Assembly (NCBI GenBank): GCA_020631955.1
Contig: JACKGL010000004.1
Location: 25,811-89,810, forward strand
Length of the DNA stretch: 64,000 nt
Source of the DNA: Candidatus Nomurabacteria bacterium
Lineage (GTDB): Bacteria > Patescibacteriota > Minisyncoccia > Phycocordibacterales > UBA9973
Direction: 5' to 3'
Below, piece by piece: positions 3,982-58,734 of this stretch. The notes under the pieces are model-generated. The model had not been told where the DNA came from. It did no database searches and saw nothing but the letters and a program-made list of their open reading frames with translations. A program made the position numbers and the translations under genes. Every line of letters begins with the position of its first letter. Within the stretch, counting starts at the first letter, position 1.

Positions 3982-4044
3982 CTCAGTTGGTAGAGCAACG
4001 GTTTTGTAAACCGTGGGTCGTGGGTTCAAGTCCCTCTTCCGGCT
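3972..4044 (+). tRNA. tRNA-Thr (anticodon UGU)
   Basis: Cloverleaf read directly: acceptor GCCGGAA/TTCCGGC, D-stem GCTC/GAGC, anticodon stem ACGGT/ACCGT with loop TTTGTAA (anticodon TGT), T-arm GTGGG-TTCAAGT-CCCTC (one U-U mismatch). Confidence 0.8.
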
Positions 4045-4045
4045 C
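4027..4045 (+). repeat. direct repeat copy 1 (3' end of tRNA-Thr, caagtccctcttccggctc)
   Basis: Exact 19-nt match with 4212..4230. Confidence 0.7.
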
Positions 4046-4211
4046 ATAAAACAAATGAACTCAGTGCGGAGCACTGGGTGATTTTGTTTTACAGTCGGAG
4101 TGGGGCTTGAACCGAGCTGGCGCAAAGCCCGCGTAGCGGAGCCTGCGAGTGGGGGTCGATGGAGTGAGATATTTTACGAGTAATACGAAGTAAAATATCC
4201 ACGAGAGTGAC

Positions 4212-7766: not shown

Positions 7767-9054
7767 AGTCAAAATAATTTCTTAGTCTCTTTATTTTTTC
7801 ATTATGTCTTAGTTTCTCATGAACCTTAGCCTCTATCTGACGAATTCTCTCACGAGTCACCCCGAACTCTTGTCCTACCTCTTCTAGAGTATGTTGCACA
7901 CCATTGGTCAGACCATATCTCATTTCCAATATTTTCTTTTCTTTCGGGTTGAGTTCATCTAATACTTCCCTTATCTGATCTTGAAGTATTCTACGAGCCA
8001 CTTCTTGGTCTGGGGAAAGTATTTTATCATCTGGAATGAATTCACCTCTTGTGGATTTTTCTTCTGAATCGTTACCGATAGGTTTTTCTAGAGAAACTGT
8101 CTCTTGGTTGATCTGTTCTATGGTGTATATCTTATCTACTTCTACACCCATCTCTGTAGCTATTTCTTCAGGTAGTGGGTCGCGGCCCAAGTCTTGTTGT
8201 AAACGACGAAGTACTTGTTTGTACTTAGATATTGTCTCTACCATGTGCACAGGTATACGAATAGTACGTGACTGATCAGCAAGAGATCTGGTTATAGACT
8301 GTCTTATCCACCATGTAGCATATGTAGAGAATTTGAATCCTTTTGTCCAATCAAACTTTTCTACTGCTTTGAAAAGACCAATATTTCCTTCTTGTATAAG
8401 ATCTAGAAGTGTAAGGTCGCTCGATCTTCCAACATACTTTTTAGCTATAGATACCACAAGACGAAGGTTGGCTCTAGCCAAAAGATTTTTAGCTTCTTCA
8501 TCCCCCGCCGCTACTCTTTTTGATAGATCTCTTTCTTCTTGTGCAGAAAGTAGGGGATACTTACCTATTTCTTTTAGATACATTTGTATAGAGTCATAAG
8601 AAGGTAGATCACGGAGAAGATTTTTCTGATCTTGTTTTATTTCTGTTTCTAGATTTAAAAGATTACCACCTTCAAGTACATCTATATGTAGAAGACCAAA
8701 ATCATCATAAAGTTCTTCAAGAAAAACAATATCGCTTTCTACGTCTGGAAAAGCTTTTAGGATTTCGTCATATGTGACATACCCTCTTTTCTTCCCTTTT
8801 TCTATAAGCTCACTTTTTATCTTATCTTTGTCAGCTTTTGATATCTTGGCACGTCTGGTTGTATTTTTTACAGCTTTTTTAGTAGATTTCTTTGCTGTTT
8901 TTTTAACAACTTTTTTATTTGTTGTTTTTTTTGCCGATTTTTTAGCTGTTTTTTTCACAGCCTTTTTTGCTACTTTTTTAGCAGTTTTCTTAGCCACTTT
9001 CTTTGTGGTTTTTTTAGCCTTCGATATTGTTTTTTTGGTTTTTTTTGCTGGCAT
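7765..9054 (-). CDS. rpoD: RNA polymerase sigma-70 factor RpoD with lysine/alanine-rich N-terminal repeats
   Basis: Regions 2-4 clearly present ([16 protein letters not shown]..., [25 protein letters not shown]..., [20 protein letters not shown]). N-terminus is [10 protein letters not shown] repeats instead of acidic region 1.1. Confidence 0.9.
8790..9050 (-). repeat. coding tandem repeat (AKK/KKT units) within rpoD 5' end
   Basis: Imperfect tandem tttttt/gctgtt repeats at nucleotide level encoding KKxAKK units. Confidence 0.6.
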
Positions 9055-17957: not shown

Positions 17958-18046
17958 GGCCAAAACATCCGAATGAACTCAGTATTGTTCGCAGTGTAAT
18001 GGAGCGGAATTGCGGACAACGTCGGGATTAAGAGAAGTTTTTGCGA
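17958..18046. repeat. dispersed intergenic repeat, copy A (core ggagcggaattgcggacaacgtcgggattaagagaagttt)
   Basis: Nearly identical to 18737..18823; shorter match at 19606..19660 and partial match at 4053..4070. Confidence 0.55.
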
Positions 18047-18736: not shown

Positions 18737-18823
18737 AGCCCAAATATTTGGATGAGCTCAGCATTGTTCGCAATGTAGTGGAGCGGAATTGCGGACAATG
18801 TCGGGATTAAGAGAAGTTTTGCC
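18737..18823. repeat. dispersed intergenic repeat, copy B
   Basis: ~90% identical to copy A over ~85 bp. Confidence 0.55.
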
Positions 18824-18938
18824 GACTTCCTTATTTCTATTATAGAGGAGGCGAAATTTAGGTGAAAGAAAAAGTGCTACCTTTGAAAAATATTAACGCA
18901 CTTTTTCTTGAACCTCATACACGCTGTTAGGCGATGTA

Positions 18939-19494: not shown

Positions 19495-19612
19495 CCTAAT
19501 GTGCACGCTTATACAAAGTCTATCACAAAACGAAGTTTTTGGGAGAGATTTTGTATAAGCGTTGTTGTGTGTAGCTCCGCGGAGCACTACAACGCTGTGA
19601 GCGTGCACATTG
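19495..19612. repeat. long nested palindrome (gtgcacgc...gcgtgcac; cttatacaaa...tttgtataag; gctccgcggagc)
   Basis: Three nested inverted-repeat pairs read directly; the spurious ORFs on both strands here are mirror-like. Confidence 0.5.
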
Positions 19613-19660
19613 TGTGCAATGGAGCGGAGCGGAATTGCGGACAACGTTTCGGGCTAATCC
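19606..19660. repeat. dispersed intergenic repeat, copy C (core with agcgg duplication)
   Basis: caatggagcggagcggaattgcggacaacgtttcggg matches the core of copies A/B. Confidence 0.5.
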
Positions 19661-52430: not shown

Positions 52431-52467
52431 AATAATATGGACGCTTTATGCGTCTTTTTTTTTTATT

Positions 52468-52585
52468 TCATAGTTTTTTTCTTTCTGCGGGCCACTCGGG
52501 TTAAGTAGCCCACAGCTCCAAGCTCCATAAGGATTTCTGAGGAATATTTTGAAAACTAGATTCAGGTATGTGGGTCGCAATATAT
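52468..52585 (+). repeat. cassette-boundary repeat R-a
   Basis: Shares ttttttcttNNtgcgggcca...gggtt.agta...taagg...tgtgggtc with R-b. Confidence 0.55.
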
Positions 52586-52588
52586 TGT

Positions 52589-53626
52589 TTAGAATTCAGC
52601 AAAGATTCGTTTTTCCGAAGAGATAATTCTGACTTTTCTCCCATAAGGCAAGCAGATTTGTGGGTTGGTGTGGCCAAAATCCATATTTTGAATTACTGGA
52701 ACAGTTTTATTATACTCTCTTATTACTTTTAAGATCTTACCACGTTGCTCTTTTCTGTATGAAGATTTTTGACCTGCTGAATTTTGTTCTTTAAAACTCC
52801 ATGCTTGTGGTCTTCCAACAAGAACCCCTTTTACACGTTCAAGAATACCTCGTTCACCAAGGGCTCGATACACACGCTTAACATAATCACTAGATGGTAT
52901 TTCCTCTGATGTTTCAGTGATAAGGATAATATTTTCAAATTGATCAAGAGCTGGAATCTTCGCCCCATGTCGTAACAGCTCATCAATGGATTCCAAACAT
53001 CCGCCCCAAGTAATTCCATCAGTATTAATATTGCCGTCCCAATACCAACCGTCATTTTCTTCATATATTCGTTCTTCGTTTAATTTTGAAATATCATCCC
53101 AGCCTAATCCTATATCATTATATACTGGACTTGGCTCCAGCTCGAATTCACCATTATCAAAAAGAGCATGCTTTATATATTTTATAGTGTATTCGTCCAT
53201 TCTCTTTTGCATGCCAAATTGAGTAAACAAAGATGCTCCATAGAACGAAGGAATTCCATTGAGCCAAAGAAAATTTGCAAAATGAGTATTATCACTAAAT
53301 CCGAAAAAAGGTTTTGGATTATCGATAAAAGGCTCCGACGGTAAATTCTTTATATATGTTATTTGATCATCTCCACCAAGCGAAGCAATGACGGCTTTTA
53401 TATCATTTTGAATAAAGCTGTCTATTAAATCTTTCGAACGTTCCTCTTTAGAAGCACCAAGTTTTGAGGTAACTGAAAATTCTACAGGTTCTAGCTCAAA
53501 GACTTCTCGAACCCTTTTAAGGGCAAGTTCATATACATGCGGCCACTTTCCTGGGGCAGCAAAAGATGGTGACACAATACCAACTTTGTCACCAGGGTTA
53601 AGTTTTGATAATTTACTGAAATTCAT
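52589..53626 (-). CDS. LD-carboxypeptidase (S66 family, LdcA/MccF-like)
   Basis: GFSDNTHF (Ser nucleophile), DFGHTNP. Confidence 0.7.
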   Translation of the reverse strand: MNFSKLSKLNPGDKVGIVSPSFAAPGKWPHVYELALKRVREVFELEPVEFSVTSKLGASKEERSKDLIDSFIQNDIKAVIASLGGDDQITYIKNLPSEPFIDNPKPFFGFSDNTHFANFLWLNGIPSFYGASLFTQFGMQKRMDEYTIKYIKHALFDNGEFELEPSPVYNDIGLGWDDISKLNEERIYEENDGWYWDGNINTDGITWGGCLESIDELLRHGAKIPALDQFENIILITETSEEIPSSDYVKRVYRALGERGILERVKGVLVGRPQAWSFKEQNSAGQKSSYRKEQRGKILKVIREYNKTVPVIQNMDFGHTNPQICLPYGRKVRIISSEKRIFAEF

Positions 53627-53660
53627 ATATTTTTATTTTAACTTAATCTAAACAAAAAAG

Positions 53661-53785
53661 GTATCTGGGTCAGACCGATACTTTTTTCTTAGTGCGGGCC
53701 ATGTGGGTTCAGTACCAGAGTAGTGAGACACCGTAAGGGTTATTTAGGAAAAATTCAGACACTAATTTGAGGCTTGTGGGTCATA
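53661..53785 (+). repeat. cassette-boundary repeat R-b
   Basis: Homologous to R-a along its length, and to R-c in its 5' part (ctgggtcagaccgatactt...tgcgg). Confidence 0.55.
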
Positions 53786-53850
53786 TAGAGAAATATTGAC
53801 ATAATATATAAATTATGATAAAATGATAGAGAACCAAAAATTAAGAAACA

Positions 53851-54363
53851 ATGAAAGTACTTTTATTAGAGGATAATCCTCAAAATATCGAAAGCTTAAA
53901 AACGGCAATTTTAACTGCCTGCCCTAATGCTGACATTACTGTATTAACAGAAGTAGGAGCTTCTTTTTACAAAGGTTCCGAATACAACGAGGCTGTGCAA
54001 TTAGCCTCGTATGATGCTGTAATAACAGATGTAAACATGCCTGGCTATACTGACCGTGATGGCATGATAATGAGCCCAATTGGACCTATTATTGCCTTAA
54101 AGGCATTACAGCAAGGAGTTAAAAGAATTGCCGTTTTGACGGATGCCAACCACCATGAAGCCAGCCCGATTTCAAAATCGGCTGATCTTTTCCGGGGTTT
54201 TCACTCGGAACTTGGATTTAATGGTGACTGTGTTATTGGTGACATAAAATTATATTATGAAAACACTAATAAGCTTAATACCAAGTATCAAACAGACACC
54301 TTGAGATGGCTCTTTAGTGAAACTAAAGACAGGGTTGTAGATTGGTTGAAAAAAAATCCGTAA
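53851..54363 (+). CDS. stand-alone response-regulator receiver (REC) domain protein with unknown C-terminal extension
   Basis: MKVLLLEDN..., DAVITDVNMPG (phospho-acceptor Asp context). Confidence 0.55.
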   Translation: MKVLLLEDNPQNIESLKTAILTACPNADITVLTEVGASFYKGSEYNEAVQLASYDAVITDVNMPGYTDRDGMIMSPIGPIIALKALQQGVKRIAVLTDANHHEASPISKSADLFRGFHSELGFNGDCVIGDIKLYYENTNKLNTKYQTDTLRWLFSETKDRVVDWLKKNP

Positions 54364-54375
54364 GGATAATAACAA

Positions 54376-54408
54376 AAGGTCTCTCAAATTTTCGAGAGGC
54401 CTTTTTTA
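54376..54408 (+). terminator. rho-independent terminator
   Basis: ggtctctcaaattttcgagaggcc then tttttt. Confidence 0.5.
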
Positions 54409-54412
54409 TTTT

Positions 54413-54454
54413 GAGACATGTGGGTCACTCCGATACTTAGTTCTCTTTGCGGTG
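54413..54454 (+). repeat. truncated boundary repeat R-c (interrupted by IR1-L after ...ttgcgg)
   Basis: catgtgggtcactccgatacttagttctctttgcgg aligns with the 5' part of R-b. Confidence 0.5.
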
Positions 54455-54640
54455 TTTATTGGACAAAGTTCGAAACTATTTCGAGCAAAATCCAAACGAT
54501 TAATGCGGACTCGGCAGGGCGAAACAATTTGTCTGAGGGAAAGGATTCGCCCTGCCTCGGCTGTTTTCCCGCCCGCAGGAGGGGTCTGGGGAGGAATGCG
54601 GGCGGGTTTCGGACTGGGGGTTTTCGGAAATTCGGCAGCT
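54450..54640 (+). repeat. IR1-L (~191 bp, GC-rich, contains two strong internal hairpins)
   Basis: Reverse complement matches 56824..57014 over every stretch I compared. Confidence 0.8.
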
Positions 54641-54649
54641 AATAAAAAT

Positions 54650-55129
54650 CTAACACAAAAAATACAATCCAAGTAGTGCGTAGATTATTCCGAACACCCA
54701 CGGAATAATCAACTCGATGTGTGAAAATGGATAGTATTTTTTGTTATCCTCGCCCTTACCCAAAACTTCCCATTCGTATTTATACAAAGCGAGTGGTAAA
54801 TATTCCTCGATTTTGTGAACAACAGCAAACTTCCCAGTGTTTAATTGTTTGTATGACCTAATGAGATACCAAAAAACTACACAAACAATTATTCCGACAA
54901 GGGCGAGGATTGATTTTACAAATGATAGATTTTCAAAAATCTTAATTTGAAAAGATAATCCTATGAGCGAGATAAGAGCAGTATTTATCGTAATAAAATA
55001 ATTATTTGCGTGTTGTCGTCTGTCGCTCGTTTTTTCTATGCTCTCAACATAAAGTTTATACTGCTCAAATAAGTGTTCTTTGTAGTCGTTTCCGTAATCT
55101 TTTTCATTTTTTGAAAATAAATCGCTCAT
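54650..55129 (-). CDS. small 3-TM membrane protein (candidate pore/effector component)
   Basis: 159 aa; soluble N-region then TM helices at ~53-68, 85-101, 139-158; last gene of operon, abuts IR1-L. Confidence 0.5.
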   Translation of the reverse strand: MSDLFSKNEKDYGNDYKEHLFEQYKLYVESIEKTSDRRQHANNYFITINTALISLIGLSFQIKIFENLSFVKSILALVGIIVCVVFWYLIRSYKQLNTGKFAVVHKIEEYLPLALYKYEWEVLGKGEDNKKYYPFSHIELIIPWVFGIIYALLGLYFLC

Positions 55130-55133
55130 AGGA

Positions 55134-55535
55134 TTATCTGTTGCCTTTCAAAAGCAAGCCAACATTTTCCCAAGTCCAGTTATACATTTTGTCAGTGGTT
55201 TTTACTCCGACTGGGAATGTGCAATTCTTATTACTTCTGCCTTTGATAAGAAAATATGGCTTGCCTAATTCTTGGGCAATTTTTATTTCTTCCGTAACTC
55301 CTTTTGCTGTGTGTGTCCATTCACCGCAAATCACGACGACCTGTTGAGCATTTATTATTTTCTGCTTAACTTTTGCTTTCCAATCACCCAACAACGCTTG
55401 TTTGACTGACAAGTCGCTTATTTCAAAAGGAGTGTCGTCGTGTTTTGCTTGTCCGACAAAAAGATGTTTCAAATCCTCGTCGTGATCAAAATCAAAACTG
55501 ACGAATACTTTTGTTTTTGTGCCGTAGTAAGTCAT
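55134..55535 (-). CDS. TIR-like (DUF1863/ThsB-like) domain protein
   Basis: KVFVSFDFDHDEDLKHLF (TIR beta-A/DUF1863 N-motif) and QQVVVICGEWTHTAKGVTEEIKIAQELGKPYFLI, which parallels ThsB VTCVLIGSQTFNRRWVRYEIMKSIEKGNKIIGI including the conserved Glu. Confidence 0.6.
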   Translation of the reverse strand: MTYYGTKTKVFVSFDFDHDEDLKHLFVGQAKHDDTPFEISDLSVKQALLGDWKAKVKQKIINAQQVVVICGEWTHTAKGVTEEIKIAQELGKPYFLIKGRSNKNCTFPVGVKTTDKMYNWTWENVGLLLKGNR

Positions 55536-55542
55536 AAATTAT

Positions 55543-56505
55543 TTACTCAAAGAATTTTCCAAGCCACCCACCAACAATACTTTGTGCAAATGCAATAACT
55601 TGCACAATCACAAAAATCAAAAATGGGTTTATATCTACAAACCAACTAACAACCCACGAAAGGAGAAGTGTCAGAAGTAAAGAGATAACAAATCCTTTTG
55701 TTTTTGAAATTTTTGGTTCAACTTCTTTTTTTGTTGGTTCATCTTTTTTATCGAGTAGTTTTTGGATATATTCAACTATTTCATCACTACTTTTAAATTC
55801 TATTTCAGAAATGCCAACATAACTTGAAGATTTTTCATCAAAAAGCGATTTATTAAAATCCTCAACATATTTCAGTTTCTTGCCATAAGCAGAATCATCA
55901 CGCTTCTCTTTCGGCAAATCCCAATATGCTTCACTCTCTTTCTTTTCTGATTCATTATCTGGATACCAAATACTCATTCCATAGTCGCCTGTATGGATTT
56001 CCAAGCCATGAGAGTCTTTTTTTACAAGTTCTTTTACTTTAGCAACGCCATCTTTAATTCTCTCTATGGATTGACGCAAAAACCTTCGATATTCATCTTT
56101 TGAGATTATTTCTGGATGTTTCGATAAAATGTATAAATTAACTTCATAATTTCCAAAAATTGGTACTTTAGACCAAACAACTTCTTTTTTTAGACTTTCA
56201 ATTCTGTCAGGCATGACAAAATCTTTTTTCTTGATTTCGGACTCCAAAACAACGCCGTCTTTTATTGAATGGTCTGTTCCACCTACAAAATCATGATAAA
56301 GCTCTATTGTCCGCATCTTTAAATCAATAGGATCATCTGAAATTTTATACTCAATTGTGGAATAGTTATGATGATAATCATCATTAATGCTCACATCTAT
56401 CTTAATTTTTTTCTCACTAGGGAAAAACTCAAAAGTGTTCGTTGTATGTTCATCGTTTATGACGATTGAATTTTCATCATCAAAAATTTCTACTTCTTTT
56501 TTCAT
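55543..56505 (-). CDS. hypothetical protein, ~270-aa soluble N-domain plus C-terminal 2-TM domain
   Basis: C-terminal hydrophobic helices GFVISLLLTLLLSWVVSWFV and FLIFVIVQVIAFAQSIVGGWL. Confidence 0.5.
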   Translation of the reverse strand: MKKEVEIFDDENSIVINDEHTTNTFEFFPSEKKIKIDVSINDDYHHNYSTIEYKISDDPIDLKMRTIELYHDFVGGTDHSIKDGVVLESEIKKKDFVMPDRIESLKKEVVWSKVPIFGNYEVNLYILSKHPEIISKDEYRRFLRQSIERIKDGVAKVKELVKKDSHGLEIHTGDYGMSIWYPDNESEKKESEAYWDLPKEKRDDSAYGKKLKYVEDFNKSLFDEKSSSYVGISEIEFKSSDEIVEYIQKLLDKKDEPTKKEVEPKISKTKGFVISLLLTLLLSWVVSWFVDINPFLIFVIVQVIAFAQSIVGGWLGKFFE

Positions 56506-56517
56506 AAGTTTAAAAAA

Positions 56518-56724
56518 TTATTTTAATAAATCCTCCATAGGAACGCCTAACGACTTGGCGATTTTTTGGATTGTTTGAACGCTTGGTTTCGTAACAACAC
56601 CACCCTCAATTTTTGTCAGGGTAGAGTATTTTATGTCCGCTTTTTTCGCCAAGTCATCTTGGGTCAATCCTTGTTTTGTTCGTATTCGTTTTATGTTTTC
56701 TGATATAGTTGCCATAGTATCCAA
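56518..56724 (-). CDS. XRE-family helix-turn-helix transcriptional regulator
   Basis: IKRIRTKQGLTQDDLAKKADIKYSTLTKIEGG is a Cro/C1-type HTH. Confidence 0.7.
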   Translation of the reverse strand: MDTMATISENIKRIRTKQGLTQDDLAKKADIKYSTLTKIEGGVVTKPSVQTIQKIAKSLGVPMEDLLK

Positions 56725-56823
56725 ATTTTGATAGTATTATCTTATGAGAAGATTCTTTCTTTGCTCACAAAACAATGATAGCAAAAATTATGGATTTATT
56801 CAATATGTATTTTCTGATTTTGT

Positions 56824-57014
56824 AGCTGCCGAATTTCCGAAAACCCCCAGTCCGAAACCCGCCCGCATTCCTCCCCAGACCCCTCCTGCGGGCGGGAAAA
56901 CAGCCGAGGCAGGGCGAATCCTTTCCCTCAGACAAATTGTTTCGCCCTGCCGAGTCCGCATTAATCGTTTGGATTTTGCTCGAAATAGTTTCGAACTTTG
57001 TCCAATAAACACCG
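56824..57014 (-). repeat. IR1-R (inverted copy of IR1-L)
   Basis: See IR1-L. Confidence 0.8.
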
Positions 57015-57131
57015 CCAAAATTCGGAATTCAAATTTCCGCCAAAAATATGGTCGGCGCGAAGCGCCGTCTGTTCTGCATTCCCCCCACAAAATCCTGATT
57101 CTGCAAGGATTCGCCACGCTCCGCGTGGCTC
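57012..57131 (+). repeat. IR2-L (~120 bp), immediately abutting IR1-R
   Basis: Reverse complement matches 58533..58652; contains palindrome cggaattcaaatttccg. Confidence 0.75.
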
Positions 57132-57155
57132 CTCGTTTGCCAATACAAAAACAAT

Positions 57156-58500
57156 ATGAATAATCACACCAGAAAGTTTTTTATCTATACTCGTAAATCT
57201 ACCGATACAGAAGATCGGCAAGTTAGAAGCATTTCGGACCAATTGGCCGAATTGAAATCTCTTGCACTCAAAGAGAATATTGAGGTTGTAGATATTTTTG
57301 TAGAAAAACAAACCGCCAAGATTCCGGGTCGGCCAGTATTTGACGAAATGCTTCTTCGTATCGAGCAAAATGAGGCAAATGGAATTTTAGCGTGGCATCC
57401 TGACAGATTAGCGAGAAATAGTGTTGATGGTGGAAAAATTATCTATTTGCTCGATACGGGGAAAATTGCCGAACTTAAGTTTCCAACTTTCTGGTGTGAT
57501 ACGACACCGCAAGGAAAATTCATGCTCTCAATCGCTTTTTCGCAATCCAAGTATTATGTGGACAATCTAAGCGAGAATATCAAGCGTGGTAAGCGGAACA
57601 AAGTGAAAGACGGAATATGGCCTCAAATGTCTCCACTCGGATATATGAACAAGGGTGGAAAAATTGTTGTTGATGAAAATATCGCACCTTTAATCAAGAA
57701 AACATTTGAGGCATATTCGTCTGGGTCTTTCACTTTGCGCCAACTTCGTGACAAATTTAACGAACTTGGATTGAAGCGAAAAAGCGGAAAGGAACTTGCG
57801 GTGTCGAATTATCAAAAACTTTTGAAAAATCCGATATACACTGGTTTGATGCTGTATAACGGCGAAATCCACGAGGGCAAGCATGAACCGATTATCACAA
57901 AGAAACTTTTTGATTCCGTTCAGGAAGTGATGATGAGGAAATCTAAACCTCACTCGAAAGGTCTAAAACCATTTTGTACAGAGGATTTTTCCGTTGTGGA
58001 GAATGTGGCTGTTTCATTACCACCGAAACACAAAAAGGACATAACTATTTGCGATGTACCAAACGGAAAAATCCTTGCTCACAAAAAATACACTCGTGAG
58101 GAAATCATCACTTCCGAAATTCAAAAAGAAATCAAAAAGTTTCTTTGCCAGACGATTGGGCTAAATGGATGTTGGCGGAAAACGAAAAAGATAAATTGGT
58201 GGAAACCCAATCGTCTACGCTTTTTAGGATAAGACAAAAGCCGATATTTCTCTCTTGATTCCAAGATTGAGAAGCTGATGAATGCTTACCTAGAAAACGC
58301 ACTTTCACTAGAGGAGTATCGAGATGCTAAAAGTGCGTTGGTCAATCAAAAACAGCTTCTCAAAGAGAAATTATCGGCTTTTGAGCAAAAAGGGAATAAT
58401 CGGTTCGAACTTACGGAAAAGTTTTTGAAATACAATATAGAATTGGCAAACGAGGGAATAAATGAAGAGAAACTTCATTTATTCAAAAAAGTCGGTTCGA
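57156..58500 (+). pseudogene. large serine recombinase (resolvase/integrase family), disrupted
   Basis: N-terminal catalytic domain (YTRKSTDTEDRQVRSISDQ..., GILAWHPDRLARN) and recombinase domain present; canonical zinc-ribbon FRCGECGCFITTETQKGHNYLRC is readable only in the -1 frame around 57977..58090; in-frame TAA at 58230 before the coiled-coil C-terminal part. Confidence 0.6.
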
Positions 58501-58532
58501 ACTTTATTATTGAAGCTCGAACCGTACTTTTT

Positions 58533-58652
58533 GAGCCACGCGGAGCGTGGCGAATCCTTGCAGAATCAGGATTTTGTGGGGGGAATGCAGAACAGACGGC
58601 GCTTCGCGCCGACCATATTTTTGGCGGAAATTTGAATTCCGAATTTTGGCGG
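58533..58652 (-). repeat. IR2-R (inverted copy of IR2-L), last bases overlap tRNA-Ser 3' end/CCA
   Basis: See IR2-L. Confidence 0.75.
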
Positions 58653-58734
58653 AGACGGAGGGATTCGAACCCTCGGTGGTGTGACCCACACACGCTTTCC
58701 AAGCGTGCGCACTAGACCGCTATGCGACGTCTCC
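58650..58734 (-). tRNA. tRNA-Ser (anticodon GGA), type II with long variable arm; CCA encoded at 58647..58649
   Basis: Reverse complement folds as GGAGACG acceptor, 3-bp D-stem, anticodon stem CACGC/GCGTG with loop TTGGAAA, 16-nt variable arm, T-arm GAGGG-TTCGAAT-CCCTC. Confidence 0.8.

Follow-up and report, generated by a model that had tools for sequence, protein, structure and literature searches.

Direct repeats beside a tRNA-Ser gene in a candidate phyla radiation genome: probable junctions of single-gene cassettes related to large serine recombinase elements

The genomes of bacteria of the candidate phyla radiation (CPR; Patescibacteria) are tiny and reduced, and little is understood of how these bacteria acquire and exchange genes. 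Among the described systems that stack mobile units at one chromosomal site, the composite islands of the staphylococcal/enterococcal cassette chromosome (SCC) involve the large serine recombinases (LSRs) CcrAB and CcrC and include ccr-less pseudo-SCC units. Tycheposons are kilobase elements with their own integrase, which is a tyrosine recombinase in 910 of 937 cases and an LSR in a minority, and they carry partial tRNA copies at their flanks (bioRxiv 10.1101/2020.12.28.424599). Here we analyse a 64,000-nt stretch of a Candidatus Nomurabacteria contig (JACKGL010000004.1; hereafter the window), in which three direct repeats, R-a, R-b and R-c, delimit single-gene units close to a tRNA-Ser gene. 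The window has a GC content of ~36% and two tRNA genes, one of which is this tRNA-Ser(gga). Our reading, to which we assign a probability of about 0.68, is that the repeats are recombination junctions of miniature, non-autonomous cassettes of LSR elements that are arranged in tandem at the tRNA-Ser 3' end and are moved in trans by an LSR.

The three repeats lie where a preliminary description of this stretch had placed them. R-a (52475-52577) and R-b (53682-53783) are homologous along their length, as had been claimed: 71 of 104 aligned positions are identical (68%), and the alignment score of 36 compares with -15.6 ± 5.3 in 2000 shuffles (z≈10). R-c (54402-54452) matches the 51 nt 5' of the R-b core (53647-53697), with a score of 11 (shuffled: -9.4 ± 3.8). 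Its final bases (..TTCTCTTTGCGG) are the counterpart of the first bases of R-a and R-b and close with the GCGG at 54449-54452. Directly after it, at 54453, begins an arm of a 194-nt inverted repeat (IR1), which confirms the view of R-c as a 5' fragment that breaks where this arm starts.

Dividing the repeat at the GCGG core, into a right-end module (X) and a left-end module (Y), describes it better than keeping it as a single element. A junction then has the form X-GCGG-Y, with X coming from the distal cassette and Y from the proximal one. X is a right end of ~40 nt; together with a preceding motif, M, it has the consensus TTGAGGyAnnnGGGTCA-nn-CCGATACT-N12-GCGG. Y is a left-end module of ~90 nt after the core and reads GCCAnnnGGGTTnAGTACC ... 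TAAGG ... TTGAGGyAnnnGGGTC. The M motifs repeat the Y-start word in direct orientation, with two of them enclosing the cargo. R-c is an M-X module that is paired with IR1 in place of a Y module. A profile built from the Y modules of other genomes had exactly two matches in the window, at 52487-52577 (E 3e-16; this sequence was absent from the training set) and at 53694-53783 (E 2e-19). The array comprises the following features.

52465-52490, + strand: distal junction, X-type tail ATTTCATAGTTTTTTTCTTTCT plus GCGG core 52487-52490, just past the terminator of an upstream 87-aa open reading frame (ORF)
52487-52577, + strand: Y module of the LD-carboxypeptidase cassette (body of R-a), with GCGG core, GCCACTCGGGTTAAGTAGCC, TAAGG and M motif TCAGGTATGTGGGTCG at 52562-52577 (nhmmer, alignment)
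52491-53697, + strand: LD-carboxypeptidase cassette, 1207 bp, single ORF 52589-53626 (- strand), Peptidase_S66/S66C
53659-53697, + strand: right-end module of the LD-carboxypeptidase cassette (left part of R-b), M AGGTATCTGGGTCA, X GACCGATACTTTTTTCTTAGT, GCGG core 53694-53697
53694-53783, + strand: Y module of the receiver cassette (body of R-b), with GCGG core, GCCATGTGGGTTCAGTACC, TAAGG and M motif TTTGAGGCTTGTGGGTCA at 53766-53783 (nhmmer)
53698-54452, + strand: receiver cassette, 755 bp, promoter-like site 53796-53824, ORF 53851-54363 (+ strand), terminator 54374-54405
54410-54452, + strand: R-c, right-end module of the receiver cassette, M TTTGAGACATGTGGGTCA, X CTCCGATACTTAGTTCTCTTT, GCGG core 54449-54452
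58647-58734, - strand: tRNA-Ser(gga), which anchors the array and serves as its target; GG at 58651-58652 is complementary to acceptor positions 72/71

The tail of the distal junction, ATTTCATAGTTTTTTTCTTTCT, is similar to the X tail of the next cassette, GATACTTTTTTCTTAGTGCGG. Each unit indeed holds one gene, in opposite orientations: the LD-carboxypeptidase on the minus strand and, on the plus strand, a 170-aa protein with a weak match to the Response_reg domain. The further statement that each unit has its own terminator held for the receiver gene, whose terminator lies inside the unit, and failed for the LD-carboxypeptidase unit, as the hairpin at 52439-52455 lies outside it and belongs to the upstream 87-aa ORF. 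The array is flanked by core genes (CitMHS, DoxX, RNase III, NusB and RNase HII; Pfam, ORFs of 40-62 kb).

We traced both cassette genes to other assemblies by exact-protein look-ups; L-numbers (L006, L007 and so on) denote loci from other assemblies or genomes that were compared with the window. The receiver unit (53693-54452) recurs at 99-100% nucleotide identity in L007, L010 and L012-L016, with identical copies of its Y module, and all sequence outside it is unrelated. It was found in at least five other left contexts and at least four other right contexts. On the left, five different sequences join the unit at ...GCGG/GCCATGTGGG (the slash marks the breakpoint). Its right end reads ...TTCTCTTTGCGG/, and what comes next is the window's own tRNA-Ser 3' end in L012, a tRNA-like 3' fragment in L010, another tRNA 3' end in L014, a serine recombinase element in L007 and IR1 in the window; ARAGORN called no tRNA beside the unit in L010 or L014. 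The LD-carboxypeptidase cassette likewise recurs at 99-100% identity; in L006 it has another left flank, and the switch is again exactly at the GCGG core. The synteny comparison that had been proposed at the outset thus found both units with unrelated flanks that change at this core, which supports the conclusion that both are independently mobile cassettes bounded by a shared GCGG. We consider it very likely that the three repeats mark site-specific junctions between cassettes at tRNA-Ser.

The full-size elements of the same arrays encode recombinases with Resolvase, Recombinase and zinc-ribbon domains, and the two window cassettes encode none. Three LSR families were distinguished, W, L7 and C, of which C and L7 are 58% identical. 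All three are abundant under CPR source names, with the best clusters among the matches listed being 76-100% identical to the query; they share the GG core in tRNA-Ser, and two of them, L7 and C, have ends homologous to Y and X, respectively. LSR-L7 elements (L007, L208, L209 and L212) end with ...gcaTCTCGTGCTAnC..(T)GGCGG/tRNA-Ser. Their left end, GCGG/..TCTCGTGTTAGAACC..CCnGTAAGGnTATTTTAGCA..CGCGTCTCGTGCG (also given as TCTCGTGTTAGAACC..GTAAGGnTATTTTAGCA..CTCGTGCG), reads clearly as a diverged but homologous Y module, with the same relation between start motif and terminal motif. LSR-C elements end in a canonical M-X module in four of four cases (L085/L214, L030, L215 and L216), and in L215 another LD-carboxypeptidase cassette lies between the LSR-C end and the tRNA-Ser gene. 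Right ends of the LSR-W type stand directly against a canonical Y in L015, L028, L041, L072 and L080, as do right ends of the LSR-L7 type in L021, L064 and L076. The cassette ends are homologous to LSR-element ends, and a cassette is thus built at its two ends like a full-size LSR element but encodes no recombinase. In the window itself, an LSR-W element lies between the receiver cassette and tRNA-Ser; its presence or absence is polymorphic at the same core.

54453-58652, + strand: LSR-W integrative element, 4.2 kb, precisely absent in L012
54453-54646 and 56818-57011: IR1 arms
57012-57015: internal inverted core CCGC
57016-57131 and 58533-58648: arms of a second inverted repeat (IR2)
58649-58652: attachment-site core GCGG
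57156-58673, + strand: LSR-W recombinase gene, apparently disrupted, with the zinc-ribbon part in another frame and a frame-0 stop at 58230-58232

Beyond the window, a degenerate Y pattern was searched over contigs, with one genome per species. It occurred at 68 loci in species-representative genomes, compared with ~0.3 estimated by chance, and nearly all of these are labelled CPR/Patescibacteria (Saccharibacteria, Paceibacteria, Parcubacteria, Nomura-, Yanofsky-, Magasanik-, Kerfeld-, Levy- and Taylorbacteria). Several conserved Y positions are not forced by the pattern (CC after AGTA, GGGTATTTTAG, TGAGG and the terminal GGGTC). Second or third copies were detected by the Y profile in ten other loci, on the same strand every time, and 86 of 86 matches in the loci from the genome scan are oriented alike. 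In 18 of the 36 loci with at least 2.5 kb to the right of Y, the first tRNA gene on that side was an opposite-strand tRNA-Ser, with five different anticodons among the 18; in one it was tRNA-Trp. The distance from Y to the tRNA-Ser 3' end was typically 0.1-6 kb. As a control, metagenome contigs were scanned with the same 28-nt tRNA-Ser 3' end. About 110 contigs with GC>0.5 (presumably non-CPR) had no X or Y and plain flanks; X-type ends were found in five of nine contigs with GC<0.5, one of which also had a Y module.

We delimited 41 cassettes, most of them 0.5-1.6 kb long, in which a single ORF fills the space from Y to M-X; the ORF is on the strand of the tRNA in 33 of 40. The cargo comprises LD-carboxypeptidases, methyltransferases, adenylosuccinate synthetase, FAD oxidoreductase, GrpB, DUF805, DUF4440, hydrolases, DapB, ADP-ribosyltransferase and kinases, and no recombinase was found among the delimited cassettes. 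One unit in L057 is 'empty': it is 116 nt long, with Y running directly into X and one M. Clustering of ORFs over the genome-scan loci gave no conserved cargo or recombinase beside Y; only LSRs recur, in ~8 loci. A strict co-variation of the nnn triplets between Y start and M appeared suggestive (TGT/TGT 17 and CTC/CTC 8, against 2 and 5), was weak once the right-end M was counted and is not relied on.

Only GCGG is common to all junctions, and 4-6 nt of the tRNA gene are duplicated. The tRNA stays intact because the inserted right end, M-X, which ends in (T)GGCGG or GCGG, supplies G73 and C74, often the full CCA. Flanking the central GG, 19 nt on either side are arranged as an imperfect dyad, GATACTaAG..tGGC / GG / GCCA..TTaAGTACC. 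Its arm complementarity is 0.6-0.9 at ±1-2 (GC/GC), ±14-17 and ±19 (GATACT / AGTACC), compared with an estimated ~0.25 by chance. The site is thus a short dyad around what would be a 2-bp crossover, with little else shared between the partners. The Y start copies the acceptor/T-arm spacing of the tRNA (GGGATTCGAACC at +8..+19), and at +12..+19 it carries TTaAGTACC in the place of the TTCGAACC of the tRNA half-site. About 9 of 13 positions of the Y start match the tRNA T-arm, and the Y start is kept across hosts with differing tRNA-Ser T-stems. In serine integrases, the motif for the zinc-ribbon domain is shifted away from the centre by 5 bp in attP relative to attB (PMC3783163). LSR-W follows this rule: TTCGAA occupies +17..+22 on the side of the element, whose half-site carries GTTCGAAAC, and +12..+17 on the side of the tRNA. 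The distal motif of the cassettes, TTAGTAyC, resembles the zinc-ribbon-domain motif of the LI integrase, TTTAGTATC (PMC3783163).

An origin of R from a tRNA gene was considered and rejected. The word TGTGGGTCA also occurs in the variable arm of the window tRNA-Ser, but no alignment extends beyond it; ARAGORN and Rfam see no tRNA in R, and the M motif is general in genomes with different tRNA-Ser. Degenerate fragments of tRNA-Ser 3' ends, followed by a terminator hairpin, stand between array units elsewhere (L074 123-270 and 2464-2612; L207 ~4030-4135; L085 7210-7260), and in L085 T-arm sequences form a perfect palindrome, head to head (GTTCGAATCCCTTAGTG..CACTAAGGGATTCGAAC). All of these may be relics of recombination events that were older or in the wrong orientation.

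We propose the following course of events. A cassette consists of a ~90-nt Y, one gene, usually on the tRNA's strand, and a ~40-nt M-X, and such recombinase-less mini cassettes would derive from integrative elements of CPR bacteria that encode an LSR. Acting in trans, an L7/C-clade LSR would cut at the GG and insert cassette circles at X·tRNA-Ser or X·Y; the junction of such a circle would read ..TTAGTTCTCTTTGCGG/GCCATGTGGGTTCAGTACC. Each insertion would rebuild a target-like site beside the tRNA gene and another at the distal end, which would allow serial accretion and shuffling. The attB-type spacing of both cassette arms would explain this regenerated target as well as the distal pseudo-target. 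The newest unit would usually be nearest to the tRNA, and the window array would have grown in the order distal flank, LD-carboxypeptidase, receiver, LSR-W element, tRNA-Ser. Co-oriented cassette genes may be expressed by read-through from the tRNA side, and the M motifs may serve the recombinase as accessory sites or mark the point at which cargo is loaded.

Several points weigh against movement by an LSR. The catalyst is inferred, as no circular cassette junction was observed. On both cassette arms the distal motif is at the attB-type position 11-19, with no attP-type shift seen; a cassette circle would not resemble a classical attP, both of its arms being attB-like. Classical LSRs are not known to recombine attB with attB or to integrate into attR. 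The conserved interior of Y and the direct-repeat M motifs are not explained by a minimal LSR site of 40-50 bp. The sole LSR in the window is of clade W and looks disrupted, and there is no L7/C-type LSR in the window. The left ends of LSR-C elements were not captured, and a canonical Y and an LSR-C gene were not seen end to end in one element. Finally, most Y loci have no LSR within the ≤8 kb of sequence per locus.

Among the other explanations, the one that fares best, although we consider it unlikely, is that the cassettes are not independently mobile. They would be in-situ deletion remnants of full-size LSR elements, spread only by hitch-hiking within larger elements or by homologous recombination between the conserved Y and X modules after DNA uptake. 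It would account for end modules that are common to full-size LSR elements and for the many arrays, the majority, without a nearby recombinase; the conserved 90-nt and 40-nt modules could act as homology arms, and the empty unit in L057 also fits. However, the 755-bp receiver cassette recurs alone, with both flanks switching exactly at GCGG, and it does so even where the left flank has no module at all (after a host-gene terminator in L010/L016 and after a gene start in L007). Homologous exchange needs shared sequence outside the breakpoints and would scatter them.

We also considered a tyrosine recombinase encoded elsewhere (integron-integrase-like, Xer-like or of the classical tRNA-targeting kind) that moves the cassettes, with the LSR elements only sharing the hotspot. 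Most tRNA-gene islands use tyrosine integrases, according to the Islander report (PMC4383910), and tycheposons are comparable in this respect. Moreover, a T-arm-like inverted repeat of 5 bp around a 7-nt spacer is frequent in the Y start (for example in L019 and L044), and the direct-repeat M motifs recall arm-type sites. Nevertheless, we regard this explanation as quite improbable, since the 4 bp common to the junctions (GCGG) is less than the overlap of 6-8 bp that would be needed, the breakpoint lies outside the T-loop, many copies, R-b among them, have a degenerate T-arm-like palindrome, and the cassette ends are homologous to those of LSR elements. The absence of a tyrosine integrase, noted from the start, was borne out by a Pfam scan of the ORFs in 40-62 kb, in which the only recombinase was the Resolvase/Recombinase-domain LSR. 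No tyrosine recombinase was seen among the recurrent protein clusters, of which the longest members were read by eye and no integrase model was run on the loci. The attC-like bulged hairpins that had been suggested for R did not appear either: single-stranded DNA folds of R-a, R-b and R-c on both strands were no more stable than shuffles (z -0.09, +0.61, -0.30, -1.54, +0.68 and +0.30), and no internal inverted repeat was reported in any of the three.

The same folds bear on single-strand transposition by an HUH enzyme (IS200/IS605-like), in which the cassettes would insert 3' of GCGG and end in GCGG like non-autonomous PATE-type elements. Formally the signature fits, since the target tetranucleotide beside the left end is the one with which the element closes, and the orientation is strictly uniform. 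Yet neither strand has significant subterminal hairpins (z +0.7 to -1.5), insertion is limited to tRNA-Ser-like sites instead of any GCGG, and the ends are homologous to LSR-element ends. No transposase was seen among the recurrent clusters that were read (no TnpA model was run on the loci). We therefore think this mechanism highly improbable.

Least probable of all is that R is a generic dispersed repeat (repetitive extragenic palindrome, REP, or miniature inverted-repeat transposable element, MITE), a structured RNA or a regulatory element that neighbours genes by chance: the strong conservation of Y over ~90 nt across distant CPR lineages, including positions outside the search pattern, would suit such an element, but there are no terminal inverted repeats, the modules keep one orientation and an association with tRNA-Ser, and the wider search for R copies, proposed in the preliminary description as the means to expose a scattered REP/MITE, gave two copies within the 64 kb, both in the array, and related modules in CPR genomes. 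As to a structured RNA, the RNAalifold consensus was weak, with an unfavourable covariation term on both strands, mutual information gave no paired columns, and Rfam had nothing in the window beyond the two tRNAs.

The arrays can be compared with several described systems. Like integrons, the arrays consist of compact, mostly single-ORF and mostly co-oriented cassettes without a recombinase, with diverse cargo and with identical cassettes in different arrays. All 41 delimited cassettes have one dominant ORF each, as in integron arrays, whose cassettes are mostly promoterless; the promoter-like site of the receiver cassette is an exception to that pattern. Unlike integrons, they have no IntI and no attC hairpin, direct instead of inverted repeats in their modules, a tRNA anchor and associated serine recombinases. 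The original suggestion was tandem accretion of islets at one att site or an integron-like array. Mobile cassettes and the tRNA-Ser anchor are supported, and the same architecture recurs across CPR genomes; the array is not an integron, though its working would be integron- and SCC-like.

With SCC, the arrays share an LSR, a single fixed chromosomal target at a conserved gene's 3' end, tandem units separated by a short core and recombinase-less units that are presumably moved in trans. They differ in the target (tRNA-Ser, not rlmH), in the size of the units (single genes of 0.5-1.6 kb, not 3-60 kb), in their conserved end modules and in their CPR hosts. As in tycheposons and other tRNA islands, integration is at a tRNA gene (tRNA-Ser included), newer units push older ones outward, and remnants and partial tRNA-like sequences occur. 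Here, in contrast to tycheposons and Islander islands, the duplication covers only 4-6 nt of the tRNA, the left end mimics the tRNA and does not copy it, and the units are single-gene and recombinase-less with dedicated ends; a displaced identical copy of the tRNA 3' end, as left by classical islands, was not present. The att sites of A118/LI, Bxb1 and phiC31 resemble the junctions in being a ~40-bp dyad around a non-palindromic central dinucleotide with minimal identity between partners (PMC3783163). The cassette junctions differ in being of attB type on both arms and in the conservation of the Y interior and of M well outside a minimal att site. Serial insertion into a regenerated site is likewise not expected of classical unidirectional integrases. 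Full-text literature searches on integrative elements, islands and integrons of CPR, Patescibacteria and Saccharibacteria returned no description of such a system.

A broader proposal, which we advance tentatively and at somewhat less than even odds, is that the arrays are a CPR-wide serine-recombinase analogue of the integron. They would form a gene-capture platform at the tRNA-Ser 3' end, where recombinase-less single-gene cassettes are stacked and shuffled between genomes and are co-oriented with the tRNA for expression by read-through; the end modules would mimic the tRNA target and regenerate it, and the M motifs could be the loading place for new genes in the 'empty' 116-nt cassette. If true, this would be a second, mechanistically independent solution of the integron type, with serine instead of tyrosine recombinases, and the tRNA-Ser cassettes would be a concrete route of gene flow in many CPR classes. 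The cargo includes metabolic gap-fillers (LD-carboxypeptidases, PurA, DapB, methyltransferases and kinases). Genome engineers could also take an interest in the three recombinase families, which are abundant, highly conserved and have defined natural sites, and the X and Y modules provide a sequence handle for accessory genes and assembly breakpoints in CPR metagenome bins. Short-read assemblies break systematically at GCGG cores and inside IR1 and IR2 (L003, L004-L006, L011 and L055), and many contigs with LSR-W homologues are only 1.6-2.2 kb long. Cassette arrays and LSR-W elements are therefore likely under-represented or fragmented in such bins.

The LSR-W element of the window carries a minus-strand cargo operon (54650-56724) that encodes an 8xMP membrane protein, a ThsB-like TIR protein (PADLOC ThsB, E 1e-5), a 320-aa ORF without a family match and an XRE-type helix-turn-helix (HTH) protein; these genes make it a candidate module against phages. 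The 320-aa gene has a copy with 88% identity immediately to the left of the receiver cassette in L007. Exact look-ups of the window LSR fragment and of the HTH protein matched no record. Intact relatives of LSR-W with the same layout beside tRNA-Ser are present in L074, L206 and L207, and the best 120 clusters, under CPR names, are 84-95% identical to the L074 query protein. The LSR-W reading frame crosses the attR core into the tRNA-Ser gene in the window and likewise in L074, and integration therefore changes the C-terminus of the recombinase.

LSR-W elements hold an inverted internal copy of their own attachment site, Y2'-CCGC-X2' (window; L074 2613-6198; L206 3769-11500; L207 4135-11616). 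IR1 (194-277 nt) brackets the cargo and IR2 (120-131 nt) the recombinase gene. The arms are 97-100% identical within a genome and different between genomes, a pattern that suggests invertible segments or concerted evolution. An assembly artefact was rejected as the source of these long inverted repeats, as the same layout occurs in four independent assemblies. The cargo varies between TIR/8xMP, unknown genes, copper resistance, and DpnII restriction-modification with AAA_13. Full-size LSR-L7/C elements (L208, L214, L215 and L216) share a module of a ParB_N-fused N6/N4 methyltransferase, a small ORF and a terminase-large-subunit-like protein of ~500 aa. In addition, their cargo includes genes for defence (CBASS, Shedu, type I/ISP restriction-modification and Abi) or for copper resistance, and the elements may be satellite- or phage-derived. 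A scan for viral sequences gave one match, which is a chromosomal defence island and not a phage.

Right after the Y module of larger elements stand tandem direct 8-mers (AAGTGACAAAAGTGACAC, ATGCCAAnAAATGCCAA, TAGACACGATAGACAC and ATGAGACAAATGAGACAC), for example at L007 9905-9925, at the left ends of L208, L209 and L212, and after the M motif in L019, L022, L027, L025 and others. They look like operator sites, with a sequence that varies by element subtype, and no common gene was found downstream of them.

Two further repeats in the window are separate from the array. An intergenic repeat of ~90 nt occurs in three copies (17959-18046, 18738-18825 and 19608-19647), with a core that is 86-90% identical (..ATTGTTCGCAATGTAGTGGAGCGGAATTGCGGACAACGTCGGGATTAAGAGAAG..) and no Rfam match at the gathering threshold; three small minus-strand genes in tandem (159, 177 and 177 aa) each have one of the copies at their 3' side. 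At 8864-9025, there is a T-rich repeat with a 12-nt period (TTTTTAGCnGTT..), whose minus strand probably codes for a low-complexity segment rich in lysine and alanine.

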